A stretch of DNA of 64,000 nucleotides from an uncultured Myxococcales bacterium (GTDB lineage Bacteria > Myxococcota_A > UBA9042 > DTJE01), in the NCBI GenBank assembly GCA_903847405.1, contig CAINDP010000153.1, positions 4,121-68,120 of the forward strand, in the 5' to 3' direction. Below, piece by piece: positions 2,960 through 51,099 of the stretch. The notes below the pieces were generated by a model. That model saw nothing but the letters and a program-made list of their open reading frames with translations, did no database searches and was not told where the DNA came from. Within the stretch, counting starts at the first letter, position 1; the number at the start of each line of letters is the position of its first letter. Made by a program: the position numbers and the translations under genes.

Positions 2960-2963
2960 CCCG

Positions 2964-4954: not shown

Positions 4955-4962
4955 GGTGCGTG

Positions 4963-15693: not shown

Positions 15694-15742
15694 CCCCTTC
15701 CAGAACGTGTGAAGGCATCGTACGGAATTCGACCGGGGGGGA

Positions 15743-32793: not shown

Positions 32794-34122
32794 TCAGGGA
32801 AAGCGGATCGCGAACCGCCGCATCTTCCGCATCAAGGTGGCCTTGTGGATTCCCAGGGCCTGGGCCGTCCGCACGCGGTGTCCGCCATTTTCCGCCAGCG
32901 CGGCACGGATGACCACCGCCTGGGCCTGGTCGAAGGCGTCGGAGGTCGCGGGCCCGGGAGGCAGGTCCGGAAGCGGCCCCCGGGCGATTTCCGGCGGAAG
33001 GCAGCACACGTCGATGTTCGGCCCGCGGCACAGCACGAACGCGTGCTCGATCGCGTGTTCCAGTTCGCGGATGTTCCCGGGAAAGTCGTATCGCAGCAGG
33101 GCGTCCAGCGCGTTCGGCGTCACCCCCCGGATCTCCCGGCCGGTCTGGGCAGCGAACAACTGAATGAAGTGGCGGACCAGCAGGGGGATGTCTTCCTTGC
33201 GGTCCCGCAACGCCGGCAGTTCGATCCGCACGACGTTCAGGCGATAGAACAGGTCGTCCCGGAACCGGCCCTCGGCCATCAACTGCCGCAGGTCCCGGTT
33301 CGTCGCGGTGACGACCCGTGCATCCGCCTTCACCGTTCGCGAGGACCCCAGGGGCTGGTATTCCTTCTCCTGCAGCACCCTCAGCAGTTTCACCTGCAGG
33401 GCCGTCGAGATATCCCCGATTTCGTCCAGGAACAGGGTCCCCCCCTGGGCCGCCGCGAACCGCCCGATCCGATCGTGCCGGGCGTCGGTGAAGGCACCGG
33501 CCTTGTGGCCGAACAGTTCGGATTCCAGCAGCGTGTCCGGCAGGGCGGCGCAGTTCAGGGCAACGAAAGGCCGATCCCGACGAGGGCTGCCGTCGTGGAT
33601 CGCCCGGGCGAACAGTTCCTTGCCCGAACCGCTGGGTCCCTGGATCAGCACCGTGCTGCCGGCCGCTGCGATATCCGGCAGGACGCGCAGGATTTCCTGG
33701 ATCCGGTGGCTCTTGCTGACGATGTCGCCCACCCGGAACCGTTCGCGCAACTGGCGCCGCAACAGTTCCAGTTCGGACAGGTCGCGAAAGGTTTCGACCC
33801 CGCCCACGGCCCGTCCCGAGGCGTCCTTCAACACCGCCGTCGAGATGCTGAGGGGCTTTTCCGTACCATCCCGCGCGCGCATCGTCACCCGAACGTCCAC
33901 GGCCTCACGCCCCGAACCCATCGTCGATCGAAGGGCGCAGCGCCGCGCGCAGGCGTCCGTCCGAAAGACCTCGCTGCACTGCCGCCCGAGGGCCTCGTCG
34001 CGCGTGAAGCCGGTGATGGCGTGGGCGGCCCGGTTCCAGGACGTGATCCGCCACTGGTCATCCACGGTGAAGACGCCGTCGGCGATGGAGTCCAGGATGG
34101 GATCGGTGCGGTCAGTCGGCAT
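32794..34122 (-). CDS. sigma-54-dependent transcriptional activator with N-terminal PAS domain
   Basis: PAS (ILDSIADGVFTVDDQWRITSWNRAAHAITGF), AAA+ Walker A GPSGSGKE, ESELFGHKAGAFTDA, GAFTGA-like, C-terminal Fis HTH; divergent from mrp paralog. Confidence 0.85.
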   Translation of the reverse strand: MPTDRTDPILDSIADGVFTVDDQWRITSWNRAAHAITGFTRDEALGRQCSEVFRTDACARRCALRSTMGSGREAVDVRVTMRARDGTEKPLSISTAVLKDASGRAVGGVETFRDLSELELLRRQLRERFRVGDIVSKSHRIQEILRVLPDIAAAGSTVLIQGPSGSGKELFARAIHDGSPRRDRPFVALNCAALPDTLLESELFGHKAGAFTDARHDRIGRFAAAQGGTLFLDEIGDISTALQVKLLRVLQEKEYQPLGSSRTVKADARVVTATNRDLRQLMAEGRFRDDLFYRLNVVRIELPALRDRKEDIPLLVRHFIQLFAAQTGREIRGVTPNALDALLRYDFPGNIRELEHAIEHAFVLCRGPNIDVCCLPPEIARGPLPDLPPGPATSDAFDQAQAVVIRAALAENGGHRVRTAQALGIHKATLMRKMRRFAIRFP

Positions 34123-34229
34123 CGGAACCTCCGGCCACGGGCATGGTCGCAAAATCGCGACCACGCTTCAAGGATTGCTTTGATGCACGGATGCGAATAA
34201 CTTGCAGCCGCGGATAGCGGAGGCCCCCC

Positions 34230-36399: not shown

Positions 36400-36612
36400 T
36401 CAGGCTTCGTCCTTCACGGCGCAAGTCCCGGCCCCACAGAGGCGGGACAGGGGACAACTGCCGACCAGGCCCGTGACGATCGGGATGATCCCCAGGGCTC
36501 CCCAGGGCGTCTGGGGACCGACGAACACCAGGCTGATCATGCCCAGGCCAGCCAGGACGCGCACCACGCGCTCGACGTTGTGGACGTTGCGGGGAAGAAG
36601 TTTCCGGAACAT
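36400..36612 (-). CDS. DUF2892 (YgaP-C-terminal-like) small membrane protein
   Basis: 70-aa product MFRKLLPRNVHNVERVVRVLAGLGMISLVFVGPQTPWGALGIIPIVTGLVGSCP matches the small 2-TM proteins usually linked to rhodanese. Confidence 0.5.
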   Translation of the reverse strand: MFRKLLPRNVHNVERVVRVLAGLGMISLVFVGPQTPWGALGIIPIVTGLVGSCPLSRLCGAGTCAVKDEA

Positions 36613-36862
36613 CGGGACCTCCAGGTTGTTGGCCACCTGCGCAGGTTGCAACGGGGCAGGCACGACCCGCGCTTCGGGTCGCACCTCGGCAAGCCTCGCC
36701 GGGACCTGACCTCCAAACATTACCTCATGGATATATTTCGCGCAAGCGATATTTAGAAATTCTTTCCACCTTCCTTCATCGGAAGACCGCCTTGACATCC
36801 GCATCGCTCTCCTTACTTTCCATTCACGACATATGCCGCCCGTGGCATCATGGAGGTGCGGA

Positions 36863-37480
36863 ATGGTTCGGACAGTCGCGAACTTCGACGATCTGACGGC
36901 GGCGACCGGCGGACTGAAGGGCCCCTCGGTGGTGGCGTTCTTCGGCGACTTTTCGGAAAAGTCGCGCCGGGCCTGGCCGGTATTCGAGGCCTTCTGCAAG
37001 GCACACCCGGAACTGGATGTGCACCTCGTCGACCTTGACAGGGTCCGGGACGTGCACCGGCGCCTCGGCGTCACGCTGGCCCCGACGGTCCTGCTGATGC
37101 GCGACGGCGCCGTTCATCAGCAACTCGTGGGTGTGCAGACGGACGCGGACTACCAGGCGGCCCTGCTGCCTCACACCAGACCGGCGCCCGGGCCGCAGGC
37201 GGGCGCAACCGCACACCCGTCCCACCGGGTACTGGTGTACACGGGCCCGGGCTGCTCCTGGTGCACCCGCGTGAAGGCCTACCTGCGCCAGCGCAACGTG
37301 TCCTTCACCGAGATCGACGTGTCCCTGGAACCGGCCCAGGCCCAGGCCCTGGTGCGAAAGACCGGCCAGACCGGGGTTCCCCAGTTGGACATCGACGGCC
37401 GCTACGTCGTCGGCTTCGACAAGGCCCGGATCGACGCCCTGCTGGGACTGGCGCCGCAGGCTTCCGCAGGCACCCACTGA
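36863..37480 (+). CDS. thioredoxin-like domain fused to glutaredoxin-like (YruB-type) domain protein
   Basis: N-terminal Trx-like region then glutaredoxin fold with CSWC active site (VLVYTGPGCSWCTRVKAYL...GVPQLDIDGRYVVGFD). Confidence 0.65.
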   Translation: MVRTVANFDDLTAATGGLKGPSVVAFFGDFSEKSRRAWPVFEAFCKAHPELDVHLVDLDRVRDVHRRLGVTLAPTVLLMRDGAVHQQLVGVQTDADYQAALLPHTRPAPGPQAGATAHPSHRVLVYTGPGCSWCTRVKAYLRQRNVSFTEIDVSLEPAQAQALVRKTGQTGVPQLDIDGRYVVGFDKARIDALLGLAPQASAGTH

Positions 37481-37620
37481 CCTCCGAGGATGGAACGACC
37501 ATCGGGCGCTCGATTGGGAAATGCTGCCAGTTCACGTTTGTGAGCGATACCTGCGCTTGACCGAACCGGATGGATACGGGAATATGCCCACCATTCCACC
37601 CGGACGCAGGAGGTTCGGCC

Positions 37621-39081
37621 ATGCGCATCGCCTTCATCCAGGACTCCGGCATGAACGAGTCCGCGGCGCTGCTGATCCTGTCGGGCCTGCTGAAACTGGG
37701 GGGGCATTCGACCCGGCTGTTCATCGACCACGACGAACGGGATCTGTTCGGCGCGCTGCGCCGGTTCGACCCCTGCCTGATCCTGGTCGCGATCGACATC
37801 GGCGGCCACCACTGGGGCCTGGGCATGGCATCGCGGGTGGCCCATGAAATGCGCGCGCCCCTGGTGGTCGTGGGCACGTACCCGACCCTCGAACTGGAAA
37901 CCGTGCTGGGCCGCCCCGAGTTCCGGTACGTCATCCCGGGGGAATGCGACGTCGCGGTGCCGGCCCTGGTGGACGCCCTGACGTCGAAAACCCCCGATTT
38001 CGGCGCAGTCCCGGGCCTGCACTGGCGCGATATCGGCGGGGAATGGCGTCGGAACGCGCTGCCGCCGTACCTCCAGGACCTCGACACCCTTCCCGCGCCG
38101 GATGTGTCCCTCTTCGAACCCTACCCCTACCTCCTCCAATTCGGGGTTCGCCGGTTCGTTTCGGGACGGGGATGTGCCAATCGCTGCAGTTACTGCTACA
38201 ACAACGACCTCAGCCGGCGGACCCGATCCCAGGGCCGGTACGTCCGACGCAAGAGCGCGGCGCCGTTCGTGGCCGAAATCGCTGCATCCCTGTCGAAGTA
38301 CCCGGCCCACCACGTCCACATGGGCGACGACCTCTTCACGCATGATCCCGCCTGGCTGCGCGCATTCGCCCCCCTTTACCGCCGCACCGTCGGCGTGCCC
38401 TTCACCTGCAACGCCACGCCCATGAGCCTCACGTCCGAAACGGTGTCCCTGCTGGCCGAGGCGGGCTGTCACGGCGTGGCCGTCGGCGTCGAGTCGGGTG
38501 ACCAGGTCCTCCGCGAACGGATCCTGGAACGGCCCGCCCGCGACGAAGACCTCCGGGCCGGGTGCGAACGTGTCCGCAAGTCGGGCATCCTGCTGGCCGC
38601 TTTCAACATGATCGCCATGCCCGGGGAAACCGTGGACCAGGCCCTTGCGACGATCCGGTTGAACCGGGAACTGGGCGTGCAGGTCCCCCGCATCAATTTC
38701 ACGTTCCCACTGCGGGGCACCCGCCTGACGGATCGCGCCATCGAGGAAGGATTCCTGACGAAGGAGGAACAGGCCGAAATCGAGCGCGAGGTCACCGCGG
38801 GACGGTTCAAACTGCGCCCCTGCTTCCGGTCCCCGGACAACGCCCTCCTCGAACGCCTGTTCCGGGTTTTCCAGTTTTCGATCATGACAGGCCTTGGCGA
38901 GTTCCAGATTCGCCAGTTGATCCGCAGCGATCTGGCGACACGGGCAATCCCCTTCCGGATGCTGATGCTGTACATGGAACGTTCCTTCTTCCGGGTACAG
39001 TGGCTGCCGGGCCTGCAGATGTACCTGCACGCGGGCCATCCGCTGGGGCGCACCAAGAACTTCAACAACTTCATCCCGTGA
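37621..39081 (+). CDS. B12-binding domain-containing radical SAM protein
   Basis: AGGAGG SD before ATG 37621; N-terminal cobalamin-binding-like domain; radical SAM CANRCSYC (CxxxCxxC). Confidence 0.8.
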   Translation: MRIAFIQDSGMNESAALLILSGLLKLGGHSTRLFIDHDERDLFGALRRFDPCLILVAIDIGGHHWGLGMASRVAHEMRAPLVVVGTYPTLELETVLGRPEFRYVIPGECDVAVPALVDALTSKTPDFGAVPGLHWRDIGGEWRRNALPPYLQDLDTLPAPDVSLFEPYPYLLQFGVRRFVSGRGCANRCSYCYNNDLSRRTRSQGRYVRRKSAAPFVAEIAASLSKYPAHHVHMGDDLFTHDPAWLRAFAPLYRRTVGVPFTCNATPMSLTSETVSLLAEAGCHGVAVGVESGDQVLRERILERPARDEDLRAGCERVRKSGILLAAFNMIAMPGETVDQALATIRLNRELGVQVPRINFTFPLRGTRLTDRAIEEGFLTKEEQAEIEREVTAGRFKLRPCFRSPDNALLERLFRVFQFSIMTGLGEFQIRQLIRSDLATRAIPFRMLMLYMERSFFRVQWLPGLQMYLHAGHPLGRTKNFNNFIP

Positions 39082-39669: not shown

Positions 39670-40086
39670 CTACTGGGCCTTCCCCTTGCGGATCTGGGCG
39701 TTGTCGCACACCCCGTCGCCGTCCGCGTCGACGAAGCCGGCGCCGTGCAGCCCCTTGCCCTTGCCTGCCGCCTGGCCGGCGCCCTTGCCCTGGCCCTTGC
39801 CCTTGGACATGCCCTTGCCCTGGCCGCCGGTACCCTTCTTGTCGCAGATCCCGTCGCCATCGGCGTCCACGAAGCCCGCGCCCGAGCCGTCCTTGAGCTG
39901 GACCTGGGCCTGGTCCTTGGCCTGGACCTGGGTCTGGTCCTTGGCCTGATCCTGGGCCTGGGTCGCCGTGCCCGACTGGACGCCCTGCCCCTTCCCCTTC
40001 ACCGCGTCCGCGTCATCCGCGAGCGCCACCGCGGGCAGGCCCGCCATTGCCACCACCAGGAACAGGCTCTTCAAGTTCGTCTTCAT
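39670..40086 (-). CDS. small secreted Lys/Gln/Gly-rich protein with two DxDGDGxCD motifs (paralog of 28515..28919)
   Basis: Signal MMKTNLKSLFLVVAMAGLPAVALA; GFVDADGDGICDKKG and GFVDADGDGVCDN. Confidence 0.6.
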   Translation of the reverse strand: MKTNLKSLFLVVAMAGLPAVALADDADAVKGKGQGVQSGTATQAQDQAKDQTQVQAKDQAQVQLKDGSGAGFVDADGDGICDKKGTGGQGKGMSKGKGQGKGAGQAAGKGKGLHGAGFVDADGDGVCDNAQIRKGKAQ

Positions 40087-40143
40087 CACCGGACCTCCTG
40101 GGTTTCAAGCACCAGCCCCCCACGGGCCGGCAAGGAATGTCCA

Positions 40144-40161
40144 TTGCGAGCGCCGTGCCAA
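40144..40161 (-). promoter_or_regulatory. sigma-54 promoter TGGCACggcgcTCGCAA (second copy)
   Basis: Identical -24/-12 elements to copy at 28977; UAS palindromes at approx 40247..40285. Confidence 0.55.
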
Positions 40162-40341: not shown

Positions 40342-41670
40342 CTATCCGCATCCGCCCTTGGTCACGGTCTTCTTCTGCAACCTGACCCGCTTCGTGTAGG
40401 TCGGGGCGGCGCCGTGGCCTGCCTCGTGTACCGGGTCATAGCCAGTACCCGTGGCGTCCGTCGCAAGCGCGCAGGCCGGCACGTATTCCTTTCGGGCCCG
40501 GTCGGGGTGAGCCGACGGGTTCCTGTCACCGACTGCGGCAACGAAGCGCCAGGCCAGGCGCTCCCCTCCCGTTTCCCCGGACAGTTTCTGCGCCACGCAC
40601 GGACTCGGCTGGTAGCGGTCCAGCCAGCCGTCGATCCCGCCCTCGATGACGTACAGGTTCAGGACCCCCTGGGCCCTCAGGTCCTTCCAGGCCTGCGTCG
40701 CAACCGCCTCGCCGTTGGACACGACGAACACGATGGTGTTTTCGCTGGCGCCCAGCAGCGTCCTGACGAACGCCGGGTCCCGCGCATCGCCCGGTTCGAT
40801 CCGTCGCGCACCGGACAGGTGGAACTGGTTGAAGTCCGCCTCCCCGCGCACGTCCAGCACATCCACCTTCAGCGTGAAGTCCTTCTTCAGGTCGACGACC
40901 TCGGCGGGGTCCACGAAGATTTCGCGCTCGCCCAGTTGCCGGTCCCCCTCCGACGCCACCCAGCCCCACCGGTCCTCGACCGTGGGCTGCCCCAGGACGG
41001 CCGTGGCGACCGCCAGGGCGACCAGGGTCCCTCCCCCCGCGATCCGCGCCCGGCTGCGCGGGACCAGCGGGATGTCCTTCCAGGATGTGCCCGCGCCGAA
41101 GTAGGCTTCCGCGATTTCCGCACCCCAGAACATCACCAGCGCCATCAGGACCAGCAGGACCACGACCACGCCGTAAGGGAGGCCCAGCCAGTCCGGCACG
41201 GTGAACCGACCCAGGAACGTGGACTGGAAGAACGGCTCGAAGGACTGCACGGTTTCGCCGAACGCATAGACGCCGCCGAACACGCCCAGGACGAAGAACA
41301 CCCCGTCCAGCTTCAGCGTCGAGGCCGCCACCAGGGAGGTTCCCGGGCAGAACCCGCCGACGATGAACCCGACGCCCATGATCAGCCCGCCGACGATCCC
41401 CGGCACAAGGTACGTCGGGTTGACCCACACGTGGCTGAAGTCCAGCAGGCCCAGCGCCGAGGACAGGAAAATCAGGACGGCCGCGACCACGATGCCGGTG
41501 AACATGACCTTCAGCACGGTCATTTCGCGCAGGTAGAACTGCGCCGCCAATTTGCGGGAGTCGCCGAAGCCCGACACCTCGAGGGCCGCGCCGAAGCCCA
41601 CGCCGATCAGCAGAAAGACGAGGTCGTATGCAAGGGTGCCGGCCAGCGGCGCCAGGTTGAACGGAGCCAT
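40342..41670 (-). CDS. YeeE/YedE family sulfur-compound transporter half fused to C-terminal rhodanese-like domain
   Basis: Internal ATG MAPFNLAPLAG; multi-TM PF04143-like region with GxxxGxCPG-type motif (GGFCPGTSL); C-terminal rhodanese-like fold (active-site Cys position appears to be Ser). Confidence 0.7.
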   Translation of the reverse strand: MAPFNLAPLAGTLAYDLVFLLIGVGFGAALEVSGFGDSRKLAAQFYLREMTVLKVMFTGIVVAAVLIFLSSALGLLDFSHVWVNPTYLVPGIVGGLIMGVGFIVGGFCPGTSLVAASTLKLDGVFFVLGVFGGVYAFGETVQSFEPFFQSTFLGRFTVPDWLGLPYGVVVVLLVLMALVMFWGAEIAEAYFGAGTSWKDIPLVPRSRARIAGGGTLVALAVATAVLGQPTVEDRWGWVASEGDRQLGEREIFVDPAEVVDLKKDFTLKVDVLDVRGEADFNQFHLSGARRIEPGDARDPAFVRTLLGASENTIVFVVSNGEAVATQAWKDLRAQGVLNLYVIEGGIDGWLDRYQPSPCVAQKLSGETGGERLAWRFVAAVGDRNPSAHPDRARKEYVPACALATDATGTGYDPVHEAGHGAAPTYTKRVRLQKKTVTKGGCG

Positions 41671-41681
41671 GTCGCCACCTC

Positions 41682-42203
41682 CTAGTTCCACAACCGGCGC
41701 ACGAAGTACGCCAGGGCATACCCGCCACCGAAGACCGCGAACATGAACGCGAAACTGCCGACCGACAGCACGGCGCCGCCGCTGAGGGCCTGGCCGGACG
41801 TGCAGCCGCGGGCCAGGCGGGCGCCGTACCCCATGACTGCGCCGCCCAGGAGGGCGTAGGCCCAACGCGCACGATTCGTGATGTGGGGCCCGCGACGGGT
41901 TTCCACCCGGAACCGTCGGTTCGCGATCCCGGAAATCATCCCGCCCAGGAAGGTCCCCAGCAGCATGAACACACCCGCGTTGTCCAGCGCGTTGCGGCTG
42001 CCGCCGCCGACCTCGGCGAAGTAGGCCACGCGGTCGACGTGCTCCGGGACGAACAGGTTCAGGATCGCGACCTGCACGTGGCCGATGGCCCCGGAAGCGC
42101 CCAGCCCGTTGCCGGTGATGTAGAAGGACAGGAACAGCACGACGCCCAGCAGGGCGCCGCCCACGTAGGGGTTGACGTAGGGACGCGGGGGCTTGCTAGT
42201 CAT
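41682..42203 (-). CDS. YeeE/YedE family sulfur-compound transporter half
   Basis: 4-TM protein with conserved ARLARGCTSG motif typical of YedE/YeeE (TsuA-like) repeats. Confidence 0.75.
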   Translation of the reverse strand: MTSKPPRPYVNPYVGGALLGVVLFLSFYITGNGLGASGAIGHVQVAILNLFVPEHVDRVAYFAEVGGGSRNALDNAGVFMLLGTFLGGMISGIANRRFRVETRRGPHITNRARWAYALLGGAVMGYGARLARGCTSGQALSGGAVLSVGSFAFMFAVFGGGYALAYFVRRLWN

Positions 42204-44460
42204 GGGACCCTCCCTCGGCGGACGGGACGTCGATGTCCTCCCACCCGTCGATCATCGCGCTGACATTCGAGAACACGGTCCGTCCGGTCGTCGTCAGGTA
42301 CAGGTGCAGCACGAAGAAGGACAGGAACAGCCAGGAACCCAGGTTGTGCAGGGGCGCGACCACGGTCAGCCCGCCGATGGAAGACGCAAAGTCGGGCCAG
42401 CGCGAGGCCCCCCAGATCAGCACGCCGGTGACCACCTGGAAGGGGAACAGCACGTTCAGCAGCCCCAGGTACGTGATCTGCTGCAGCGGGTTCATCTTGC
42501 GGTCGGCGGTCTTCGCGGGGTGCGGCTGGCCCACGAAGATGCCCTGCAGGTAGTACTGGGCCTGCGCCGCCACCCGCCCGGGCAGGTCGTGACGCCCGGG
42601 GACGAACTGCCGGATCGCATCGCTGGCCAGGTGGTAGAACAGCGACAGGAAGGCGTTGACGATCATCACGACGGCAACGATGTTGTGAAGCTTCACCGCC
42701 AGCGGCAGGCCCACCAGCGTCCAGTTGCCGCCGAAATGGACCTCGACCCCCGTGACCATCAGCACCAGGATGCTGGAGGCCATCAGCCAGTGCCAGACGC
42801 GCTCATAGGCGGTGTACAGGTAGGCCTTGCGCGTCGGACGATGGCCATGGGCAAAGCGGCCGCGCGCCCGGAGCCGCAGCCCGCCGTGCACCGCGACCCC
42901 GGCCAGGACGCCAGCGAACGCCAGGAAGCCGAGGCGGTCGGTCCAGGTGCCTTGCGAGTGGCCGAAGACGTGGAAGGACGCTCCCGAATCCCGCTGCAGG
43001 ACCAGGCCATGGCCGTCCGGCGACGCCACGACGCCTCCGAAGGCCAGGCCGCCTCCCTCGGGAACCGTCGGGACGACGCCGCCGGGATAGGGAGCGGAGG
43101 CCAGGGGAATCGCCGCGTTCAGACGGGAATCCTCGGCGTGACAACCGGTGCAGTCCCTCTGCACCGCGGGACCGGACACGACGTCGTGGTTCACGGGCCG
43201 CGGAACGATCGCGGTCCGGATTTGCGGATCCGCGACGCCTCCAGCCGCCAGGCGTGACCGGAGAACCGCGACCTTTGCCGGTGTGTCCAGGCGCACCTCC
43301 GCGACGTCCAGGCGGCCATCGCCGTTGCCATCCAACGCGCGCACCACCTCGTTCGCGTAGGTGTCACCCTCGAACCATGCCGCCCGGACGGCGGCAAACG
43401 GAATCTCGTCACCGGCAGGACCCGACGCCCAGAACCACCGGGTGACCAGGTTGAAGGGTGCGATGCGCATCCCCTCGGCAGGGTCCGTGCGGGCCAAAAG
43501 GAACGGCGCGTACCCCGTGGCGAAGGCCGTGTTCAGCGACTGGTCGTCGGCGCGGTCCAGGCCGCGGTACTCCACGCGCGGACCGCCACCGGGCAGCATC
43601 ACCGTGGCGTCCACCGAGCGCGCCGCCGGGCCCGCGAGGGTCGGCACGTGGCAGGCACGGCAGTCCAGCGTGTCCATGTGGCGTTTCGTGTAGGGCAGGA
43701 ACGCGTGGACCTTCAGGGGGTCGTGGCAGGACCGGCAGGTCGCGGCGACGAGTTCATGGTCCGGCCGACGCAGGAACTGGGACAGGGCAATCTTGCGCGG
43801 ATCGTTCAGCAGGAAGTCCAGCGCCGTGTGCTTCACGTCGGCCTTCGCCGGGTTGTTCCGGGCGAAGTGGCAGTCCGTGCACGCGACCAGGCGTCGCGAA
43901 TGGACGTCCCAAGGATTGGTCCGCGCCGCCTTGTCCTTCAGATTCAGCCACGAATCGCCGACGGCCTGGGGCGACAGGATTTCGCCGGTGTCGCGGGTCA
44001 GGGCGTAGGTGTGCCCACCGGACGCACCCGGGACCGCCGACTCGAAGTCGTCAGGAATCGTCAGGGGCTCCGTCCCGCCGTGGACGATCCCGTGGCAGAA
44101 GGCGCAGTTTTCGTCCCGCGGGGCCCGGATGCGGATCGCCTCCCGGCGCAGCAGGCCCGTTTCGTCGAAGACCGTCGGGTCGGTCGGCAGGCGACTGCCC
44201 TCGAAGTGGCACTCGGCGCACGTCGCCTGCCGCCCGTCCCGGGAGTGCGGGTTGTGGGCGTCGATGTAGGCGGCGTCATGGCAGGCGCCACAGGTCTTTC
44301 CCGACGACGGGGCGCCGCCGGACACCGCGATTCGCTGCCCCGCCTCGTCCAGGATCGGGAACGCCGGGTGCATCGGGTTCGCGGGCCCCTGGGCACGGGC
44401 CTCCGGCGCGAAGATGGTACCGACCACTGCCGCAAGAATGACCGCAGGAATCCGTCTCAT
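42196..44460 (-). CDS. heptaheme c-type cytochrome fused to C-terminal membrane di-heme cytochrome b-like domain
   Basis: Signal MRRIPAVILAAVVGTIFAPEARAQG; CGACH, CAECH, CAFCH, CTDCH, CRSCH, CRACH, CTGCH; C-terminal approx 230 aa with 5-6 TM helices and conserved His (cytochrome b561/NrfH-partner-like). Confidence 0.7.
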   Translation of the reverse strand: MRRIPAVILAAVVGTIFAPEARAQGPANPMHPAFPILDEAGQRIAVSGGAPSSGKTCGACHDAAYIDAHNPHSRDGRQATCAECHFEGSRLPTDPTVFDETGLLRREAIRIRAPRDENCAFCHGIVHGGTEPLTIPDDFESAVPGASGGHTYALTRDTGEILSPQAVGDSWLNLKDKAARTNPWDVHSRRLVACTDCHFARNNPAKADVKHTALDFLLNDPRKIALSQFLRRPDHELVAATCRSCHDPLKVHAFLPYTKRHMDTLDCRACHVPTLAGPAARSVDATVMLPGGGPRVEYRGLDRADDQSLNTAFATGYAPFLLARTDPAEGMRIAPFNLVTRWFWASGPAGDEIPFAAVRAAWFEGDTYANEVVRALDGNGDGRLDVAEVRLDTPAKVAVLRSRLAAGGVADPQIRTAIVPRPVNHDVVSGPAVQRDCTGCHAEDSRLNAAIPLASAPYPGGVVPTVPEGGGLAFGGVVASPDGHGLVLQRDSGASFHVFGHSQGTWTDRLGFLAFAGVLAGVAVHGGLRLRARGRFAHGHRPTRKAYLYTAYERVWHWLMASSILVLMVTGVEVHFGGNWTLVGLPLAVKLHNIVAVVMIVNAFLSLFYHLASDAIRQFVPGRHDLPGRVAAQAQYYLQGIFVGQPHPAKTADRKMNPLQQITYLGLLNVLFPFQVVTGVLIWGASRWPDFASSIGGLTVVAPLHNLGSWLFLSFFVLHLYLTTTGRTVFSNVSAMIDGWEDIDVPSAEGGSHD

Positions 44461-45929
44461 CGGCGACCTCCCGTCGTCAGCGGGTCGCCGTCGTAGCCCA
44501 GGGCCTTCCAGTCCATTCGTGTCGTCCTTTCATCGAGGTTGCCCGAGGCGGCTGCGCCTGTGCGCTCGGGCAGGCCGTGGCAATCGGTGCACTGCAGCGC
44601 GGCTTCCTTCGGCGCGACCATGTGTGACAGCGGCCAGTGCATCGCCGTCTGCGCGAAGCCATACTCGCCGCTGTACTGGATCCCCGAAGCATCCGCGCCC
44701 AGCCGCAACGCCTTCTCCCAGTCGAAGTCGTGCCAGAAGCCGCCCGCACCGCTGGTCACGGGGGGCAACAGGATGTCCCGTTTCCGGTCGTAGGGTTGCA
44801 GGGCCCGGTGGACCTTGAACGGCCAGATTTTCGCCGTGCGATCGTGGATGTTCCCGCGGGGCCGATTGATGGTTGTCGTCGTCGCCGGATCCATCGGGTC
44901 GCCCAGCAGGTATCGGTCCACGGTGCCGTTGAACCAGTCGTACTCGGGCACGATGTCGTGGTCGTACACGAACTCGCCCTTGATCTTCAGGTAGGTGTGC
45001 GGGTCGTCGGGACGGTTCGGGTCGCCGCCCTTGCTCCAGTCCCAGAACGTCTTGGTGGGCAGGCGGCGGGCGTAGGTCGGGACATGGCAGGTGGTGCAGG
45101 CGACGCTGTCAAGGTGCGTGTTGATCCGCGCATCCTGGTGCGGAGGCGCCTTGTGGCAGTCGACGCAGCCGATGCCGCCCTCGTCCGTGACGCTGACCGA
45201 AAACGCGCGGCCACGAATGAGGTGCTTTTCCGTCCGATGGCAGTCGATGCAAAGGAACCCGCTCTGCCCCATGTGGACGTCGTCGTCCCGGGTCGGGTTT
45301 TCCAGGCTGCTGTCCAGATCGCCGTGCTTCACCCCCTGGCCACCGCCGCCGTAACTGTGGCACACCGAGCAGTTTTCCCGTTTCGGGAAGCCCACCGATT
45401 TCGCCACGGCCAGCAGGTCCACACCCTTGGCCGGGAGGCCCTCGTCACCCTTCACGTAGGAACCCGAACGCTCGTGGCAGACCAGGCAGTCGACCGACTC
45501 GGCGCGGTTGAAGTCGAACTTCTCGTCCTTCCAGCCGTACCCCGCGTGGCACTTCGTGCACGAGGCCCAGTTGCCGGTGATGTTGATGCAGAAGTTGTTC
45601 AGCAGGTTCTTCTTGCCGATTCGCATCGTCCCGTCGTGTCCCGGGACCGTGACAGGATCGCCCAGCCACTGCCAGTGCGCCGTCTGCATCAGGTCCGAGG
45701 CGGCCTGGGGGTGGCAGTTCAGGCAGGCCTTCGTGACTTCCTGCGGCGTCCCGAAGGCCTCCGTGAAGAAGGGCGCGTGGTCCAGATGGGTGCGGACCCG
45801 CTTCCGGAAATCCGCCCGCGCGGCCGCGTCGGCCGGGGGATGGACGGGCGACGCGACGACCCAGGCGACGACTCCCGCAATCACCAGTGCCAGGACCACG
45901 ACCCACATCTGCTTGAACCGGCCAGTCAT
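44457..45929 (-). CDS. octaheme c-type cytochrome, tetrathionate reductase (OTR) family-like
   Basis: Signal anchor MTGRFKQMWVVVLALVIAGVVAWVVA; eight CxxCH (CLNCH, CTKCH, CLVCH, CSVCH, CIDCH, CVDCH, CTTCH, CTDCH); size about 490 aa as in Shewanella Otr. Confidence 0.65.
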   Translation of the reverse strand: MTGRFKQMWVVVLALVIAGVVAWVVASPVHPPADAAARADFRKRVRTHLDHAPFFTEAFGTPQEVTKACLNCHPQAASDLMQTAHWQWLGDPVTVPGHDGTMRIGKKNLLNNFCINITGNWASCTKCHAGYGWKDEKFDFNRAESVDCLVCHERSGSYVKGDEGLPAKGVDLLAVAKSVGFPKRENCSVCHSYGGGGQGVKHGDLDSSLENPTRDDDVHMGQSGFLCIDCHRTEKHLIRGRAFSVSVTDEGGIGCVDCHKAPPHQDARINTHLDSVACTTCHVPTYARRLPTKTFWDWSKGGDPNRPDDPHTYLKIKGEFVYDHDIVPEYDWFNGTVDRYLLGDPMDPATTTTINRPRGNIHDRTAKIWPFKVHRALQPYDRKRDILLPPVTSGAGGFWHDFDWEKALRLGADASGIQYSGEYGFAQTAMHWPLSHMVAPKEAALQCTDCHGLPERTGAAASGNLDERTTRMDWKALGYDGDPLTTGGRR

Positions 45930-46255
45930 CACGACGCCTCCTGTATGCGAATCTCGGCGGTGATCGCATCGCCCGACAGGCATTTCAGGACTTCGCCGAG
46001 TCGTTCGAGGTTCAACCTGTACCAGGCGAAGCCGCTGGCCCGCCGCACCTCGACCAGGCCGTTCATCCGCAGAATGGCCAGTTGGCCGGAAACGACGGCC
46101 TGGGGGGTTTTCAGGACCTCGGTCAACTGGCTGACGTTGGCCTCGCCTTCCCGCAGCACGGCCAGCAGTTCCAGCCGTATCGGGTGCGCCACGGCGCGCA
46201 GCAGGGTCGCCATCCGAACCGCCTTCGTCGGGTCCAGGGCCAGGGATCCCGTCAT
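45929..46255 (-). CDS. ArsR/SmtB family transcriptional regulator
   Basis: Winged HTH (LLRAVAHPIRLELLAVLREGEANVSQLTEVLKTPQAVVSGQLAILRMNGLVEV); stop overlaps cytochrome start. Confidence 0.8.
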   Translation of the reverse strand: MTGSLALDPTKAVRMATLLRAVAHPIRLELLAVLREGEANVSQLTEVLKTPQAVVSGQLAILRMNGLVEVRRASGFAWYRLNLERLGEVLKCLSGDAITAEIRIQEAS

Positions 46256-46393
46256 GGTCCACCTCCTTGCTCACCCAGCCGAGCGCAAAGCCGCCTCGGG
46301 TGCTTCCGACAGCCCCGAGCGCATCGCACGGGGTCCGGGACGGCACGGGGGTGAAGCAGGAGACGTGCCATGGACCGGCGATGTATCGAGATA

Positions 46394-46405
46394 TTGATAT
46401 ATCAG
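46394..46405. promoter_or_regulatory. perfect AT-rich palindrome TGATATATCA in arsR/mrp divergent intergenic region (candidate ArsR operator/-10)
   Basis: 10-bp perfect palindrome inside a 25-nt AT-rich island in 70% GC DNA, about 130-150 nt upstream of arsR start. Confidence 0.35.
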
Positions 46406-46579
46406 CGACTTGCGCAGAGCAGCGTCCGACAGGGGCGCTCGCCAGAGGTCGCACCGATGCCTCCTCAGGTTGCAGTTCTGCGACCTTGATGGGAGTAAAC
46501 GCTGCGTTCCCGGTTGAAGGCTTGCGTTAGTGGGCAGATGCTAATAACTTCCCCTGGGTCAAACGGTGGAGGCTACCCC

Positions 46580-47938
46580 ATGGGCTGCGGTTTTCGAAAC
46601 GATCAAGGCGCGGACGGCATTGACGGAAACGGGCCCGAGGCGTTGGCCAAGCCCGACGACCTGGCCCGCGCTGCGATGCGTCTGATTCCCCATAAGGTGC
46701 TGGTGATGAGCGGGAAAGGGGGCGTCGGCAAGACGACGGTCGCCGTCAACCTCGCGTACGCCCTGGCTGCCGCCGGCCACAAGGTCGGGATCGTGGACGC
46801 GGACATGCACGGTCCCGATGTACCGCTGATGACCGGGATCGAGGGACTGCGGGCCGAGGCCAGCGACGAGGGGTTGATCCCCATCGAGGCTCCCGGCGGG
46901 GTCCGCGTCCTGTCGGTGTCCTCGTTCCTGACCTCCCCCGACGCCCCGGTGATCTGGCGCGGTCCGGCCAAGACCGGCGTCATCGCCCAGTTCCTGGGCC
47001 TGGCCGACTGGGAAGGCACCGAGGTGCTGATCGTGGACTGCCCCCCCGGAACCGGGGACGAACCCCTGTCCGTGGCCCAGATGATCCCGGACGCCGACGG
47101 CGTCGTGATCGTGACCTCCCCGCAAGGCGTGTCGCTGCTGGACAGCCGGAAGTGCGTCGGCTTCGCCCGCCAACTGGACCTGCCTGTGCTGGGCATCGTC
47201 GAAAACTTCTCGGGGTTCGCATGCCCGGGTTGCGGCCGCCGCATCGACCTGTTCAAGCGGGGCGGGGGCCAGCGCGCGGCGGCGGAACTGGGCATCCGCT
47301 TCCTGGGCAGCATTCCCATCACCGAGGCGATGGTCGAGGCAGGCGATTCGGGGCACCCCCTGGTGGCTTCGACCCCTGACGACCCCGCATCCCAGGCCTT
47401 GGCGGCCATCGCCCTGGCGATAACGGCCGACTGGGCGACCTCGGACGCCGTCGCGGCGGACTCCGATGCGGACCGGGCTCTTCCGCCGAAAGCCCTGGGC
47501 ACCCTGCGCCTCGGCGTGACGGCCGAGGACGACGCGGGCCTCGACGCCGTGATTTCCGGCCACTTCGGCCACGCTCCGGTCGTGATGGTGGTCGAGGTCC
47601 AGGACGGGAAGGTCCTGTCGGTGAAGCCGGTGGTCAACCCCGGCGCGACCAACCACCAGCCGGGCCAGATGCCCCGATTCCTGAAGAGCCTGGACGTGGA
47701 CGTGGTGCTGACGGGAACGATGGGCGAGCACGCGAAGTCCATGTTCGACGCCTTCGGGATCAAGGTCGTAGGCGGAGCGGACGGCACGGTGGGCCAGGCC
47801 CTGAACGCCTGGATACGTGGGGATCTGGCTGTGTGGGTCCCCTGCGGAGCCCACGGACACCACGGCGGCGGGTGCGGCGGCCACGGGCATGATCACGCTG
47901 GCGGCGGTTGCGGAGGCCACACCTCCGGACAGGACTGA
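46580..47938 (+). CDS. Mrp/NBP35 family ATPase fused to C-terminal NifX/NifB-type (FeMo-cofactor-binding-like) domain and His/Gly/Cys-rich tail
   Basis: SGKGGVGKTT, CPGCGRR; C-terminal domain GHFGHAPVVMVVEVQDGKV...VDVVLTGTMGEHA; tail CGAHGHHGGGCGGHGHDHAGGGCGGH. Confidence 0.85.
   Translation: MGCGFRNDQGADGIDGNGPEALAKPDDLARAAMRLIPHKVLVMSGKGGVGKTTVAVNLAYALAAAGHKVGIVDADMHGPDVPLMTGIEGLRAEASDEGLIPIEAPGGVRVLSVSSFLTSPDAPVIWRGPAKTGVIAQFLGLADWEGTEVLIVDCPPGTGDEPLSVAQMIPDADGVVIVTSPQGVSLLDSRKCVGFARQLDLPVLGIVENFSGFACPGCGRRIDLFKRGGGQRAAAELGIRFLGSIPITEAMVEAGDSGHPLVASTPDDPASQALAAIALAITADWATSDAVAADSDADRALPPKALGTLRLGVTAEDDAGLDAVISGHFGHAPVVMVVEVQDGKVLSVKPVVNPGATNHQPGQMPRFLKSLDVDVVLTGTMGEHAKSMFDAFGIKVVGGADGTVGQALNAWIRGDLAVWVPCGAHGHHGGGCGGHGHDHAGGGCGGHTSGQD
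46655..47395. repeat. approx 740-bp segment about 90% identical to 34305..35040
   Basis: Direct nucleotide comparison. Confidence 0.8.
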
Positions 47939-47982: not shown

Positions 47983-48012
47983 CTTGACGCGCCATCATGG
48001 ACCATTCATATT
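47983..48012 (+). promoter_or_regulatory. candidate sigma-70-type promoter TTGACG-N17-CATATT upstream of SQR-like gene, embedded in direct repeat CATATTTC(x2)
   Basis: -35/-10-like hexamers with 17-nt spacer about 60 nt before ATG 48077; AT-rich island. Confidence 0.35.
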
Positions 48013-48076
48013 TCGCATGTGGCATATTTCTAGCGCGCCACGTGTCCAACGGTTCCATCGGGCCAAGGGGGGGTTC

Positions 48077-49246
48077 ATGAAAGCGCTGATCCTGGGAGGC
48101 GGCATCGGGGGCATCGAGGCGGCGATCGCGTTCCGCAAGGAGGGTTTCGAGGTCGAACTGGTGTCGGACCGGGAGTACCTTTTCGTCTACCCGATCGCCA
48201 TCTGGATCCCGGTCGGCACGGCGCGATTCGAGGATGTGGCCGTACCGCTGGACGATCTGGCACGCCGGCACGGTTTTTCCTGGACCCTGGACCGCGTCAC
48301 GGCCATCACCCCCGACACGGGAAGCATCACCCTGGAAAAGGCGGGGGAGCGCAGGGACTTCGACATCCTGGTCCTGGCCCTGGGTGCGGGCAAGATGAAG
48401 CACGAGGGGATGCAGAACACGCTGTCGATCTGCGGCGCACCCCAGCAGTCCCTGGCGCTGAAGGCGCGCATCGACGCGTTGATCCTGCAGGGCGGCGGCC
48501 GCATCGCCGTGGGTTTCGGCGGCAACCCGAAGGACCCCAGCGCGGTTCGCGGCGGGCCGGGCTTCGAGTTCGTCTTCAACCTGCACCACGTCCTGAAGAA
48601 GCGTGGTATCCGGGACCGCTTCACCCTGACGTTCTTCGCACCCATGGCCGAACCGGGCGCCCGGATGGGGCCGAAGGCGCTGGGGATGCTGGGGAAGATG
48701 TTCACCCGGTGCGGCATCCAGACACATTTCGGCAGCAAGATCCTAGGGTTCGACCCGGACGGCGTGCGCTTCGAGGATGGCAGCAAGGTCGACAGCGACC
48801 TGACGATGTTCATCGCGGCCGGCGACGGGCACCCCGTGATCAAGGCCTCGACGCTGCCCGTCAACGACGCCGGGTTCGTCCGGACCAACGACTTCCTGGA
48901 GGTGGAGGGCCGGCCGGGCTGGTACGCCGTGGGCGACACGGCTGCCCTGGAGGGCCCCGACTGGAAGGCGAAGCAGGGGCACGTGGCCGAGGTCATGGCA
49001 CGTCAGGCCGCCCACAACGCAGCCGTCACGCACCTGGGCCGAAGCGGCACCCGGCGCGGCTACCAGGCGCACCTCAGCATCCTGTGCGTGATGGACATGG
49101 GCAACGGCGCGGGCTTCGTGCACCGGGACGACCGGAAGGCCCGCCTGTGGTCGCTGCCGTTCGTGGGCCACTGGATGAAGAAGGGCTGGGGCTGGTACTA
49201 CCGGAACAGCAAGATGCGCTATTTCCCCCGACTGCCCGGAATGTGA
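48077..49246 (+). CDS. FAD-dependent pyridine nucleotide-disulfide oxidoreductase, sulfide:quinone oxidoreductase (SQR)/NDH-2-like
   Basis: N-terminal dinucleotide fold MKALILGGGIGGIEAA; second Rossmann; size and architecture of SQR/FCSD flavoproteins. Confidence 0.7.
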   Translation: MKALILGGGIGGIEAAIAFRKEGFEVELVSDREYLFVYPIAIWIPVGTARFEDVAVPLDDLARRHGFSWTLDRVTAITPDTGSITLEKAGERRDFDILVLALGAGKMKHEGMQNTLSICGAPQQSLALKARIDALILQGGGRIAVGFGGNPKDPSAVRGGPGFEFVFNLHHVLKKRGIRDRFTLTFFAPMAEPGARMGPKALGMLGKMFTRCGIQTHFGSKILGFDPDGVRFEDGSKVDSDLTMFIAAGDGHPVIKASTLPVNDAGFVRTNDFLEVEGRPGWYAVGDTAALEGPDWKAKQGHVAEVMARQAAHNAAVTHLGRSGTRRGYQAHLSILCVMDMGNGAGFVHRDDRKARLWSLPFVGHWMKKGWGWYYRNSKMRYFPRLPGM

Positions 49247-49389: not shown

Positions 49390-51099
49390 ATGACCGTGGG
49401 TGGAACGGGGGGCGGTACCGCCGCGAAACTGGCGGCCTGCGGCCTGGTGCTGCTGCTGCTGCCGGTGGGTGGATGCATCCGCGAGCGGTGCTACCGGGAC
49501 CTGGATTGCCCGGCGCCGAAGGTATGCGGGGCTCAGGGAACCTGCGCCTGGCGGTGCGTCACGGCGGAGGATTGCGGATCCGGCTTCGACTGCGTCGCCC
49601 ACGCCTGCGAACCGCTGTCGGTGATCCCGGATTCGGGCCGGGAGGTCGGTGACGACGTCCCGGTGTCCGAACCCGAGTGCCCTGATGACATGGTGCTGGT
49701 ATCGAAGTCCTATTGCCTGGACCGCTACGAGGCGTCGCGAACGGACGCAACGGCGACCGGGCCCGGGGCCGATGGTTCCCGGGCCACGTCCCGGATGGGG
49801 GTGCTGCCCTGGCAGGTGGTGGACAACGCGACGGCCGCGGCGGCCTGCGTTGCGGCGGGCAAACGATTGTGCTCGCCGGCCGAGTGGGAGTACGCCTGCC
49901 ACGGTCCCGACGGGACCGAGTACGCCTATGGCAACGCCTACGCATCGACTGCCTGCAACGGGATCGACGCCTTTGGCGAGGGGGGCTTCCACCTGGCGCC
50001 CACCGGCTCGTTCCCGGGGTGCACGAATGGGTACGGCGCCTTCGACCTCAGCGGCAACCTGTGGGAGCACGTGGGGGAAGGCAGCGACATGACGGTCCGG
50101 GGCGGGGCCTTCAACTGCCGGGACTCGGCAGCATTGCACCGTTGCGGCTACGTGCCCGGCACCTGGACCCCTTCGGCGCGCGGATTCCGGTGCTGTGCTG
50201 CGCCCACCTTCCCGGCGGGCCCGCCCGAGGTCCCCGACGAGCCCCTCCTGCAGGACCTGCCGGTCCCGGTTGACGCCGCCGACATCCCGGACGTGCCGTC
50301 GCCGATCGATGCGGGGCCGGACGGTGACGGCGGAGGCTGCCTGGATCCCGACACGCCCCCGGATGCCCCCCGCGACGTGGACGCCGGGCCGTCCGATCCG
50401 GGCGCCGTCGATCCCGGCCCCACGGACTCCGGCGCGACGGACCCCGGTTCCGTGCCCCGTTGCCCCGCAGACATGGTCCCGGTGTCACCCGCCGGTGTCG
50501 CGGCCTGGTGCCTGGATCGATACGAAGCCAGTCGGGACGACGCGACGGGTTCCTCGACCGGAACCTCCTCCCGCCCGGCCAGCCGTCCCGGGGTCCTCCC
50601 CTGGCAATCCGTCACGCTGGACGCCGCGCGGACGGCCTGCGCGTCGGCGGGCAAGCGCCTGTGCACGCCGGCCGAGTGGATCAGTTCCTGCGCCGGGCCG
50701 GCCGCGACCGCCTACAGCTACGGCAACACGTATGTGGCCGACACCTGCAACGGCATCGATGCCTTCTGCGATTGTGCGGGAGCCTGCGCCGCCGTGGCCG
50801 CCTGCCCCTACCCGCACTGCCGTGTCCAGGCGTCGCCTGCCCTGGACGGGGGCCCCTGCGGGGCGTCCTTCCACGTGGTCCCCACCGGCGCCTTCCCGGC
50901 CTGCACCAACGAATGGGGCGCCTTCGACCTGAACGGGAACGTGTGGGAGATCGTGGAGCACGGGGACGGCGTCGAACACTTCCACGGCGGGGCGTACAAC
51001 TGCTCGGACTCCGAGGCTCTGCACCGCTGCGACTACGACGCCACGTGGGGACCATCCGCAAGGGGATTCCGCTGCTGCGCCGACACGGAGCCGCCGTGA
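49390..51099 (+). CDS. lipoprotein with two tandem formylglycine-generating-enzyme (FGE/SUMF1)-family domains
   Basis: Lipobox LVLLLLPVGGC; repeated FGE-like blocks CLDRYEASR...GVLPWQ...GKRLC(S/T)PAEWE...GNLWEHV/GNVWEIV...GGAFNC/GGAYNC...RGFRCC twice. Confidence 0.75.
   Translation: MTVGGTGGGTAAKLAACGLVLLLLPVGGCIRERCYRDLDCPAPKVCGAQGTCAWRCVTAEDCGSGFDCVAHACEPLSVIPDSGREVGDDVPVSEPECPDDMVLVSKSYCLDRYEASRTDATATGPGADGSRATSRMGVLPWQVVDNATAAAACVAAGKRLCSPAEWEYACHGPDGTEYAYGNAYASTACNGIDAFGEGGFHLAPTGSFPGCTNGYGAFDLSGNLWEHVGEGSDMTVRGGAFNCRDSAALHRCGYVPGTWTPSARGFRCCAAPTFPAGPPEVPDEPLLQDLPVPVDAADIPDVPSPIDAGPDGDGGGCLDPDTPPDAPRDVDAGPSDPGAVDPGPTDSGATDPGSVPRCPADMVPVSPAGVAAWCLDRYEASRDDATGSSTGTSSRPASRPGVLPWQSVTLDAARTACASAGKRLCTPAEWISSCAGPAATAYSYGNTYVADTCNGIDAFCDCAGACAAVAACPYPHCRVQASPALDGGPCGASFHVVPTGAFPACTNEWGAFDLNGNVWEIVEHGDGVEHFHGGAYNCSDSEALHRCDYDATWGPSARGFRCCADTEPP

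Follow-up and report, generated by a model that had tools for sequence, protein, structure and literature searches.

What an octaheme cytochrome of the Otr family does in the cell, and with which partners, is the question raised by five genes at positions 40342 to 46255 of the DNA analysed here (the window: 64,000 nucleotides of contig CAINDP010000153.1 from an uncultured Myxococcales bacterium, with a G+C content of about 68%). The physiological function of Otr has never been established, as a 2026 study points out; on free tetrathionate it shows very little activity, its highest activities in vitro are the reduction of nitrite and hydroxylamine, and a Shewanella ttr otr double mutant handles tetrathionate almost exactly as the ttr single mutant does (PMC12949373). 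In sediment microcosms, tetrathionate raised the expression of an Acidobacteriota otr 36-fold (PMC8528874), and papers that use otr as a marker gene handle it as a stand-alone gene. In lucinid symbionts, otr adjoins the gene of a divergent SoxY-type carrier (PMC11237559). We find that the otr gene of the window belongs to a module that is conserved across several phyla. Its parts all come from known families; the novelty lies in the conserved module itself and, within it, in a membrane-tethered, cysteine-less rhodanese domain that bears a SoxY-like arm.

Five tightly packed genes

The five genes are all encoded on the minus strand:

45929-46255, minus strand: arsR, 108 amino acids
44457-45929, minus strand: otr, octaheme cytochrome, 490 amino acids
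42196-44460, minus strand: heptaheme c::cytochrome b fusion (MHC::cyt b), 754 amino acids
41682-42203, minus strand: yedE half 1, 173 amino acids
40342-41670, minus strand: yedE half 2 with a rhodanese-like domain, 442 amino acids

Consecutive genes overlap or nearly touch. One nucleotide is shared by arsR and otr (TGATG, at 45929), four by otr and the MHC::cyt b gene (ATGA, 44457-44460) and eight by the MHC::cyt b gene and yedE half 1 (42196-42203), while 11 nucleotides (41671-41681) separate the two yedE halves; a GGAGG-type Shine-Dalgarno sequence precedes every one of the five starts. A previous reading of this DNA from sequence alone (hereafter the sequence-only reading) had described this layout, together with eight CxxCH motifs in 44457-45929 and seven more ahead of a His-rich domain with multiple transmembrane (TM) helices in 42196-44460. 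We found all open reading frames (ORFs) and junctions where it had placed them, reproduced both motif counts and confirmed the domain identities of the five products with Pfam and NCBIfam. A scan detected no terminator-like sites inside the operon, and the sole promoter-like match there, inside the MHC::cyt b gene, was no better than matches in shuffled sequence; in a region of 68% G+C, this sigma70 promoter and terminator scan gave no information.

The module recurs in fused and split forms

An Otr-alignment scan with one genome per GTDB species returned 369 relatives, from which the best 80 loci were taken (57-90% identity). The full set was colinear and on one strand in all 63 loci with 5.65 kb or more of sequence following the start of otr, with a conserved order: Otr, heptaheme cytochrome, cytochrome b, YedE1, YedE2 and the rhodanese-like domain with its arm (Rhd-arm). 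The remaining 17 of the 80 loci end at a contig edge, and every part is present up to that edge. The hosts come from at least six phyla, with Myxococcota/Anaeromyxobacter, Eisenbacteria, Spirochaetota, Syntrophobacteraceae, Aminicenantes and Acidobacteria represented, and one of them, Anaeromyxobacter oryzae Red232 (L026; NZ_AP025591.1, about 1.563-1.585 Mb), is cultured. The core module consists of the four genes that follow arsR, and their colinearity in all 63 related loci that are long enough puts the arrangement far beyond chance. The sequence-only reading had taken the arrangement at this one locus as a sign of a sulfur-linked role; the synteny does recur, and it therefore indicates such a role for this Otr.

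The predicted periplasmic part of the 442-amino-acid protein was then used as query in a HMMER pass over 1.84 billion representatives (E≤1e-3). This arm family proved small, with only 412 relatives, which come in a long form fused to YedE and in a short stand-alone form. Six short forms were looked up, one of them on a 1-kb contig without usable context. The other five all lie in an unfused six-gene module (Otr, 7-heme cytochrome, PF01292 cytochrome b, YedE, YedE and Rhd-arm), each product of which is homologous to the matching segment of a window protein; the heptaheme cytochrome and cytochrome b are two separate genes in L088, L090, L092 and L093. Every arm-family context that was sampled includes Otr. 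Because the parts are fused in one lineage and separate neighbours in another, they probably act together, and this Rosetta-stone evidence from sequence argues that the heptaheme cytochrome works with cytochrome b, and YedE2 with the Rhd-arm.

The sequence-only reading had not recognised the gene combination as a described system. Likewise, we found no published description of the gene set, or of the GGCG arm presented below, in the open-access literature, and a description elsewhere is possible.

The Otr of the module forms a clade of its own

Otr of the window matches the TIGR04315 model with 540.7 bits against a cutoff of 375, over model positions 2-432 of 440; its alignment with Shewanella oneidensis Otr (PDB 1SP3) is full-length, at E=1e-134 and 51% identity. 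The protein opens with a hydrophobic export or anchor segment, and all eight CxxCH motifs are invariant in the alignment of relatives. Its GKKN motif aligns with residues 55-58 of 1SP3, so that K106 takes the position of Lys56. K106 is invariant and, judged by its alignment with Lys56, would be the ligand of heme 2, the active-site heme. Also invariant is C114 (aligned to C64), a free cysteine eight residues past the GKKN lysine. Membership in the OTR family, as it had been proposed, thus rests on a profile score above cutoff, on the match to 1SP3 and on the retained Lys56-aligned residue.

In a neighbour-joining tree, the operon-type Otr proteins all fall in one clade, from which the others are separated by fixed substitutions and indels. 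Window and Shewanella Otr have in common the eight CxxCH motifs, the GKKN lysine at Lys56 and the adjacent free cysteine; they differ in that window Otr belongs to a separate clade and is always accompanied by MHC::cyt b, split YedE and the Rhd-arm. P0311, a protein from the Shewanella-like list whose contig is as long as that of L079, was considered as an operon-type Otr and rejected, since the tree puts it in the other clade; we regard the equal length as a coincidence, or P0311 as a paralogue.

The link to a sulfur module, which the sequence-only reading had drawn for OTR in general, holds for particular Otr clades only. We rejected a context shared by all Otr genes because the partners are missing in Shewanella algae and because none of the module's partner genes was found beside otr in Malonomonas, Desulfuromonas and two further genomes. 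Shewanella-type otr has other neighbours: in S. algae (L081 5814-9401, plus strand, with 1439-5244, minus strand), it follows genes for a monoheme cytochrome c and a DUF3373 protein, a context that is different from the module and possibly also sulfur-linked. The same S. algae gene has a PsrABC-like molybdoenzyme operon and a TauE gene beside it. A Desulfuromonas metagenome-assembled genome carries two tandem otr paralogues (L084 6001-9028, plus strand), and no module partners.

A heptaheme cytochrome fused to a b561/PhsC-like cytochrome b

MHC::cyt b is composed of a Sec signal peptide, a heptaheme c domain, an extra TM helix and a PF01292 domain (E=4.8e-23, residues 549-739). The heptaheme c domain is predicted to be exported and periplasmic, and its seven CxxCH motifs are kept in all 71 homologues examined. 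The cytochrome b561/PhsC-like domain covers residues ~506-740 with about five predicted TM helices, in which histidines H525, H557, H575, H592, H610, H705 and H719 are conserved; the last two have the spacing expected of a ligand pair on one helix. The fusion that had been read from the sequence is real. In NCBIfam, the best match is PhsC (NF011582), with 118.3 bits under an equivalog cutoff of 204. A search of PDB sequences with MHC::cyt b returned only a spurious match to a DnaJ zinc finger, so the protein has no solved relative there.

A comparable architecture is found in CbcL of Geobacter sulfurreducens, an inner-membrane quinol oxidoreductase in which a multiheme c part with nine c-hemes is joined to a diheme cytochrome b, with six TM helices (PMC9129911). 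Both combine, in one chain, a multiheme c domain in the periplasm with a membrane cytochrome of the b type, and both presumably link the quinone pool to periplasmic partners. However, MHC::cyt b has seven c-hemes and about five TM helices and is not a CbcL orthologue; moreover, it belongs to an Otr operon and corresponds to two separate genes in other lineages.

A split YedE pair of the PmpAB type

YedE half 1 matches positions 177-309 of PF04143, which makes it the PmpA/C-terminal-half type, and its K+R-rich termini indicate an N-in/C-in topology. The partner half is the first of the segments that make up the 442-amino-acid protein:

40981-41670, minus strand: YedE/YeeE half 2 (residues 1-230), PmpB/N-terminal-half type with two extra TM helices, PF04143 positions 11-200
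40615-40908, minus strand: Cys-less rhodanese-like domain (residues 255-352), PF00581 E=4.5e-11
40396-40614, minus strand: linker with the Cys358/Cys400 pair (residues 353-425)
40345-40395, minus strand: basic C-terminal arm, Y-T-K-R-V-R-L-Q-K-K-T-V-T-K-G-G-C-G-COOH, with the invariant terminal Cys441

Each half carries one invariant cysteine: Cys133 of half 1, in ARGCTSGQALSGG (ARGCTSG), across the 73 homologues measured, and Cys108 of half 2, in GGFCPGTS. An AF2 model of the 442-amino-acid protein (mean pLDDT 72) shows helices at 7-32, 51-72, 88-105, 121-143, 166-192 and 207-226. The NCBIfam TsuA models score the YedE halves at 28-37 bits, against cutoffs of 400-645.

Classified by sequence, the two halves are of the PmpAB/YedE1E2 type and not of the TsuA type. 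PmpA and PmpB (YedE1E2) are likewise two half-size PF04143 proteins with one conserved cysteine each (PMC11582611), and YedE1E2 imports zero-valent sulfur with one essential cysteine per half (PMC10812762, PMC11582611). The likeness extends to the single cysteines, each of which corresponds to Cys91 or Cys293 of TsuA, and to an ArsR regulator that often adjoins (PMC11582611, PMC10812762). What sets the window pair apart from YedE1E2 is its place in a multiheme cytochrome operon and the additional equipment of half 2, namely two extra TM helices, a Cys-less rhodanese-like domain predicted to be periplasmic, and the Cys arm. The distance to the thiosulfate importers of the YeeE family (PMC7449682) is of another kind: TsuA/YeeE is one polypeptide with nine TM helices and three conserved cysteines, whereas the window has two genes with one cysteine each, and the partner of TsuA is the cytoplasmic, TusA-like TsuB, whereas that of the window pair is predicted to be periplasmic. 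Thus, of the split YedE/YeeE transporter proposed by the sequence-only reading, the split pair stands and the TsuA-type assignment does not. Nor is uptake of a sulfur oxyanion the best-supported function, because the relatives of PmpAB/YedE1E2-type halves import zero-valent sulfur.

A Cys-less rhodanese domain carries an invariant GGCG arm

When the AF2 model was compared with the PDB by Foldseek, the best matches were all rhodanese-like proteins, and the tail gave no information. The rhodanese fold announced by the earlier annotation is therefore present; a sulfurtransferase-type domain it is not, since the active-site loop, [LV]xSNGExxA[TL], has no cysteine in any of 64 homologues. The domain as a whole contains 0.05 cysteines on average in the same 64 proteins. 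In the linker that follows, Cys358 and Cys400 occur together in 51 homologues, are both missing in 13 and occur singly in none; this all-or-none pattern fits a disulfide in an oxidising compartment.

An invariant cysteine lies in the arm, whose consensus reads Y/F-x-K-K-V-K-L-Q-x-K-x-x-x-K-G-G-C-G-COOH. All 64 locus homologues, from several phyla, end in GGCG, and so do 102 of 149 representatives of the arm family, a further 18 of which end in GGC plus one or two residues (e.g., GGCGG). This invariant arm had escaped the sequence-only reading. A Gly-flanked cysteine at the extreme C-terminus, GGCGG, is the hallmark of the SoxY carrier arm, a swinging arm on which SoxXA, SoxB and SoxCD act. With SoxYZ, the carrier chemistry of which has been described (PMC5336275), the window protein has in common an invariant cysteine among glycines at the very C-terminus (GGCG here, GGCGG in some more distant homologues), a predicted periplasmic location and a co-encoded c-type cytochrome that may be able to form or cleave S-S bonds. 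It differs in that the arm sits on a rhodanese-like fold, is membrane-tethered or channel-fused, follows a strongly basic K/R-rich stretch and has no linked SoxZ, SoxB or SoxXA genes in the module. Among the recurrent flanking clusters that could be identified (regulators, DUF4382 and FadL-type proteins; several others are unidentified or spurious-looking ORFs), there were no sox genes. Because Pfam SoxY did not match the last 90 or 215 residues of the 442-amino-acid protein at E up to 10, we regard the likeness as an analogy and not as a sign of common descent.

The rhodanese-like domain and the arm are predicted to be periplasmic on four lines of evidence. First, the YeeE crystal structure has its N-terminus outside and four TM helices in its N-terminal half, and H7 crosses inward (PMC7449682); the AF2 model shows the YeeE set plus one more TM helix, 207-226, before the rhodanese-like domain. 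Second, the TM5-TM6 loop holds 3.9 K+R with a net charge of +2.6 over 64 homologues, and the loops predicted to be outside are net negative. Third, the Cys358/Cys400 pair is all-or-none. Fourth, the stand-alone forms of ~210 amino acids open with a signal anchor, such as MKxxxxGAxxLLLxxAGLxxxGQPT. Since Otr and the heptaheme domain are also predicted to be exported, the redox partners and the arm would share one compartment.

A rhodanese-fold carrier in the periplasm has a precedent in the Sud-PsrABC system of Wolinella succinogenes, where soluble Sud carries polysulfide to a quinol-linked molybdoenzyme reductase and holds sulfur on its rhodanese active-site cysteine. The module would resemble it in that a periplasmic rhodanese-fold carrier passes sulfur to a membrane-linked respiratory reductase; it differs in that the cysteine is borne by a C-terminal arm and is missing from the rhodanese loop, and in that a multiheme cytochrome would be the catalyst.

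Two further observations concern the arm. In L090, the unfused module is immediately preceded, on its own strand, by a gene for a DsbD-like thiol:disulfide transporter (DsbD_TM plus thioredoxin; 399-2312, plus strand), which fits a periplasmic cysteine in need of reduction, in this one locus. A protein of 244 amino acids, P0499, starts like Otr (…TPQAVTRACLTCH…) and ends in the arm tail (…KRVKLQNKAAVKGGCG); it probably stems from a chimeric or mis-assembled contig and is not a real fusion of Otr and arm.

A model for sulfur handling by the module

We propose that the operon encodes a co-transcribed, periplasm-facing module for sulfur redox chemistry and transfer. The cytochrome b domain would trade electrons with the (mena)quinone pool, and the fused heptaheme c domain would relay them to periplasmic Otr, which would work mainly on sulfur covalently bound to the cysteine of the C-terminal arm and not on a free anion. 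The arm, flexible and basic, would be anchored at the membrane by the Cys-less rhodanese-like domain fused to the YedE half and would swing between the active site of Otr and the periplasmic mouth of a heterodimeric YedE1/YedE2 channel. This channel, with one invariant cysteine per half, would pass sulfane sulfur or thiosulfate to the cytoplasm. Most likely, the module works in the reductive direction: the arm thiolate would take tetrathionate or polysulfide as Cys-S-S-SO3- or Cys-S-Sn-, and Otr would then split the S-S bond of the adduct with electrons derived from quinol. We favour this direction because thiols spontaneously capture tetrathionate and polysulfide, because the hosts are anaerobic respirers and because the tetrathionate/thiosulfate couple lies well above menaquinol. 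The potential of that couple is +198 mV (PMC8528874).

The model accounts for the very low activity of Otr on free tetrathionate and for the near-unchanged turnover of the ttr otr mutant (PMC12949373), and the lucinid otr beside soxY hints independently at carrier arms as partners of Otr (PMC11237559). We give the model an even chance: a quinol-linked periplasmic module in which Otr acts on arm-bound sulfur, next to a channel with a cysteine relay. More tentatively, and somewhat short of even, we suggest that the substrate of module-clade Otr is a sulfur adduct on a membrane-tethered carrier cysteine, not a free anion, and that the module is a second swinging-arm system independent of Sox.

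Several points weigh against this proposal. We infer every functional step, whether topology, arm-bound catalysis, substrate or direction, from sequence; the topology is predicted from sequence and from a model whose confidence is low across the last arm residues. Otr proteins of the other clade are found without an arm, and Otr chemistry therefore needs none in general. The tail has no detectable homology to SoxY, and the arm could serve the channel alone, as a gate or a feeder, and never visit Otr. Both the sulfur species and the choice between reductive and oxidative electron flow are matters of deduction, and the Rrf2 regulators of 12 loci could signal cues other than sulfur.

The last of the roles just considered for the arm belongs to an alternative that follows the sequence-only reading more closely. 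Here Otr reduces free tetrathionate with quinol electrons from MHC::cyt b, the YedE pair imports the thiosulfate product, and the arm is an accessory of the channel for capture or gating. The fusion of the arm to the channel, and not to Otr, agrees with this, and so do the reduction of tetrathionate by Otr in vitro, the 36-fold induction of the Acidobacteriota gene by tetrathionate (PMC8528874) and thiosulfate import by the YeeE family (PMC7449682). However, the same explanation has to cope with an enzyme that is barely active on the free anion and a Shewanella ttr otr mutant that behaves almost exactly like the ttr mutant (PMC12949373), as well as with YedE halves of the PmpAB/YedE1E2 and not the TsuA type (PMC11582611). 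It also leaves unexplained why no sampled context has the arm family without Otr, and we consider it unlikely, though worth keeping in mind.

FdnI/HydC-type cytochromes b, which are members of PF01292, normally reduce quinone, and this habit favours electron flow the other way. Otr would then couple sulfide or thiosulfate to the arm cysteine, as SoxXA does with SoxY, electrons would go to quinone and the sulfane sulfur would be imported for cytoplasmic oxidation or assimilation. Although the SoxY-like terminal motif, the import of carrier-bound sulfur proposed for SoxT/YeeE-type proteins (PMC11582611) and an SQR-like flavoprotein nearby in the window all fit, the hosts, mainly bacteria that respire anaerobically (Anaeromyxobacter, Syntrophobacteraceae, Spirochaetota), are not known sulfur oxidisers, the +198 mV thiosulfate/tetrathionate couple is too positive for menaquinone reduction (PMC8528874), and no cytoplasmic sulfur-oxidation genes are conserved beside the module. 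An oxidative module is thus improbable in our view.

That Otr is a reductase of nitrite, hydroxylamine or nitric oxide fed by MHC::cyt b, with YedE and rhodanese in an unrelated or indirect role, would agree with nitrite and hydroxylamine reduction as the highest activities in vitro (PMC12949373) and with the Rrf2 family, which includes NsrR, at the head of 12 loci. Yet a sulfur channel and a Cys arm are linked to Otr in every locus examined, fused or split, and the nearest NCBIfam model of the window ArsR, a weak match, is the sulfite-sensing BigR; such a role is very improbable. Hardly credible is a function in selenium or tellurium metabolism, with Otr reducing selenite or tellurite, selenium bound by the arm cysteine and imported by the YedE pair, since the hints to it, selen_YedE_FdhT as the best NCBIfam match of the first YedE half (40 bits), weak ExtN/ExtO matches (selenite/tellurite operon) and a weak match of the neighbouring flavoprotein to a SelD-associated family, score far under their cutoffs (40 vs 350, 21 vs 200, 71 vs 310), and neither selD nor any other gene of selenium utilisation is conserved in the module's vicinity.

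Regulators of the operon

Three features of the window bear on the control of the operon:

46384-46403, minus strand: AT-rich palindromic site GATATATCAATATCTCGATA upstream of arsR, a putative operator
46355-46370, minus strand: sigma54-type promoter-like site TGGCACGTCTCCTGCT, ~100 nt upstream of arsR, a putative promoter
32794-34164, minus strand: PAS-sigma54 AAA+-HTH_8 enhancer-binding protein (Pfam domains), a candidate activator of the operon

The regulator at the head of the module varies. ArsR is directly upstream in 8 of the 80 loci and present in about 10, Rrf2 regulators are found in 12, and sigma54 activators, mostly divergent, in 27; an ArsR-headed operon, as first described, is thus correct for this locus and a local feature. 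Window ArsR matches PF01022 (40.7 bits, E=2.2e-10) and NF033788 (68.4 against a cutoff of 55); with the BigR model it reaches 54.6 bits against 155 and fails as an equivalog. Its single cysteine, C92, lies near the C-terminus, with none in alpha2, unlike BigR/SoxR-type persulfide sensors, which have a two-Cys pair (alpha2 and C-terminal). A C-terminal cysteine is common to most, not all, of the module-linked ArsR homologues. A TsoR lead from NCBIfam was dropped (37.8 bits against a cutoff of 115; the name is absent from the open-access papers searched). In L040, two ArsR paralogues (15464-16300, plus strand), both with a C-terminal CxxxC, lie downstream and not upstream of the module.

A ATATnnCAATAT motif related to the putative operator is found upstream of arsR in L021, L007, L032, L043 and L047. 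On the two strands of the window, TGGCAY-N5-YTGCW matches nowhere but at 46355-46370, and this site is kept in L021, the closest relative. The enhancer-binding protein is 90% identical to the activator encoded directly upstream of arsR-otr in L021, and may regulate the window operon.

Neighbouring genes

The gene at 39670-40089 (minus strand) encodes a small secreted Gly/Lys/Gln-rich protein of 139 amino acids with two GAGFVDADGDG[IV]CD repeats, for which Pfam and NCBIfam gave no match. It is preceded by TTGGCACGGCGCTCGCAAT (~40130-40150), which resembles a sigma54 -24/-12 element. We considered it as a sixth gene of the operon and rejected it, since its homologue is found in L021 only and is distant from the module there.

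Divergent from arsR are the genes of an Fe-S carrier ATPase of MrpORP-like type, which also has a NifX-like domain and a tail rich in His and Gly (46514-47938, plus strand; 388 bits against a cutoff of 450), and of a flavoprotein of SQR-like or SelD-associated type, with weak matches (47984-49246, plus strand). Further on, a protein with two FGE-sulfatase (PF03781) domains and a Pro/Asp-rich linker between them is encoded at 49390-51099 (plus strand). These three were rejected as parts of the module because they fall outside the conserved flanking clusters. On the other side, a radical SAM protein of the B12-binding type is encoded at 37570-39081, and at 36400-37480, an ORF with a YgaP-like TM domain (PF11127) overlaps a thioredoxin-glutaredoxin fusion ORF on the opposite strand.

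Recurrent genes lie just upstream of the module in 9-17 Anaeromyxobacter-type loci (L050 5604-8163, minus strand, and equivalents): a DUF4382 lipoprotein in 17 and a FadL/TodX-type outer-membrane channel in 9, neither of which occurs in the window. A hydrophobic substrate, elemental sulfur for example, could enter through the FadL-type channel.

What the module means for Otr

Otr is widely used as a metagenomic marker of tetrathionate respiration though its function is not established (PMC12949373). The module gives Otr fixed partners, namely a predicted electron wire to the quinone pool, a sulfur channel with a cysteine relay and a cysteine on a putative carrier arm, and these are conserved across many anaerobic phyla. 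With a cultured host, Anaeromyxobacter oryzae Red232, the question of Otr function becomes directly testable. If the proposed mechanism is true, carrier-arm sulfur chemistry would reach beyond the Sox system, in the form of a swinging-arm system wired to the quinone pool on one side and to a Cys-relay channel on the other. It would explain why isolated Otr acts so feebly on tetrathionate and why no clear phenotype has emerged in twenty years, and otr counts in surveys of the sulfur cycle would have to be read differently.

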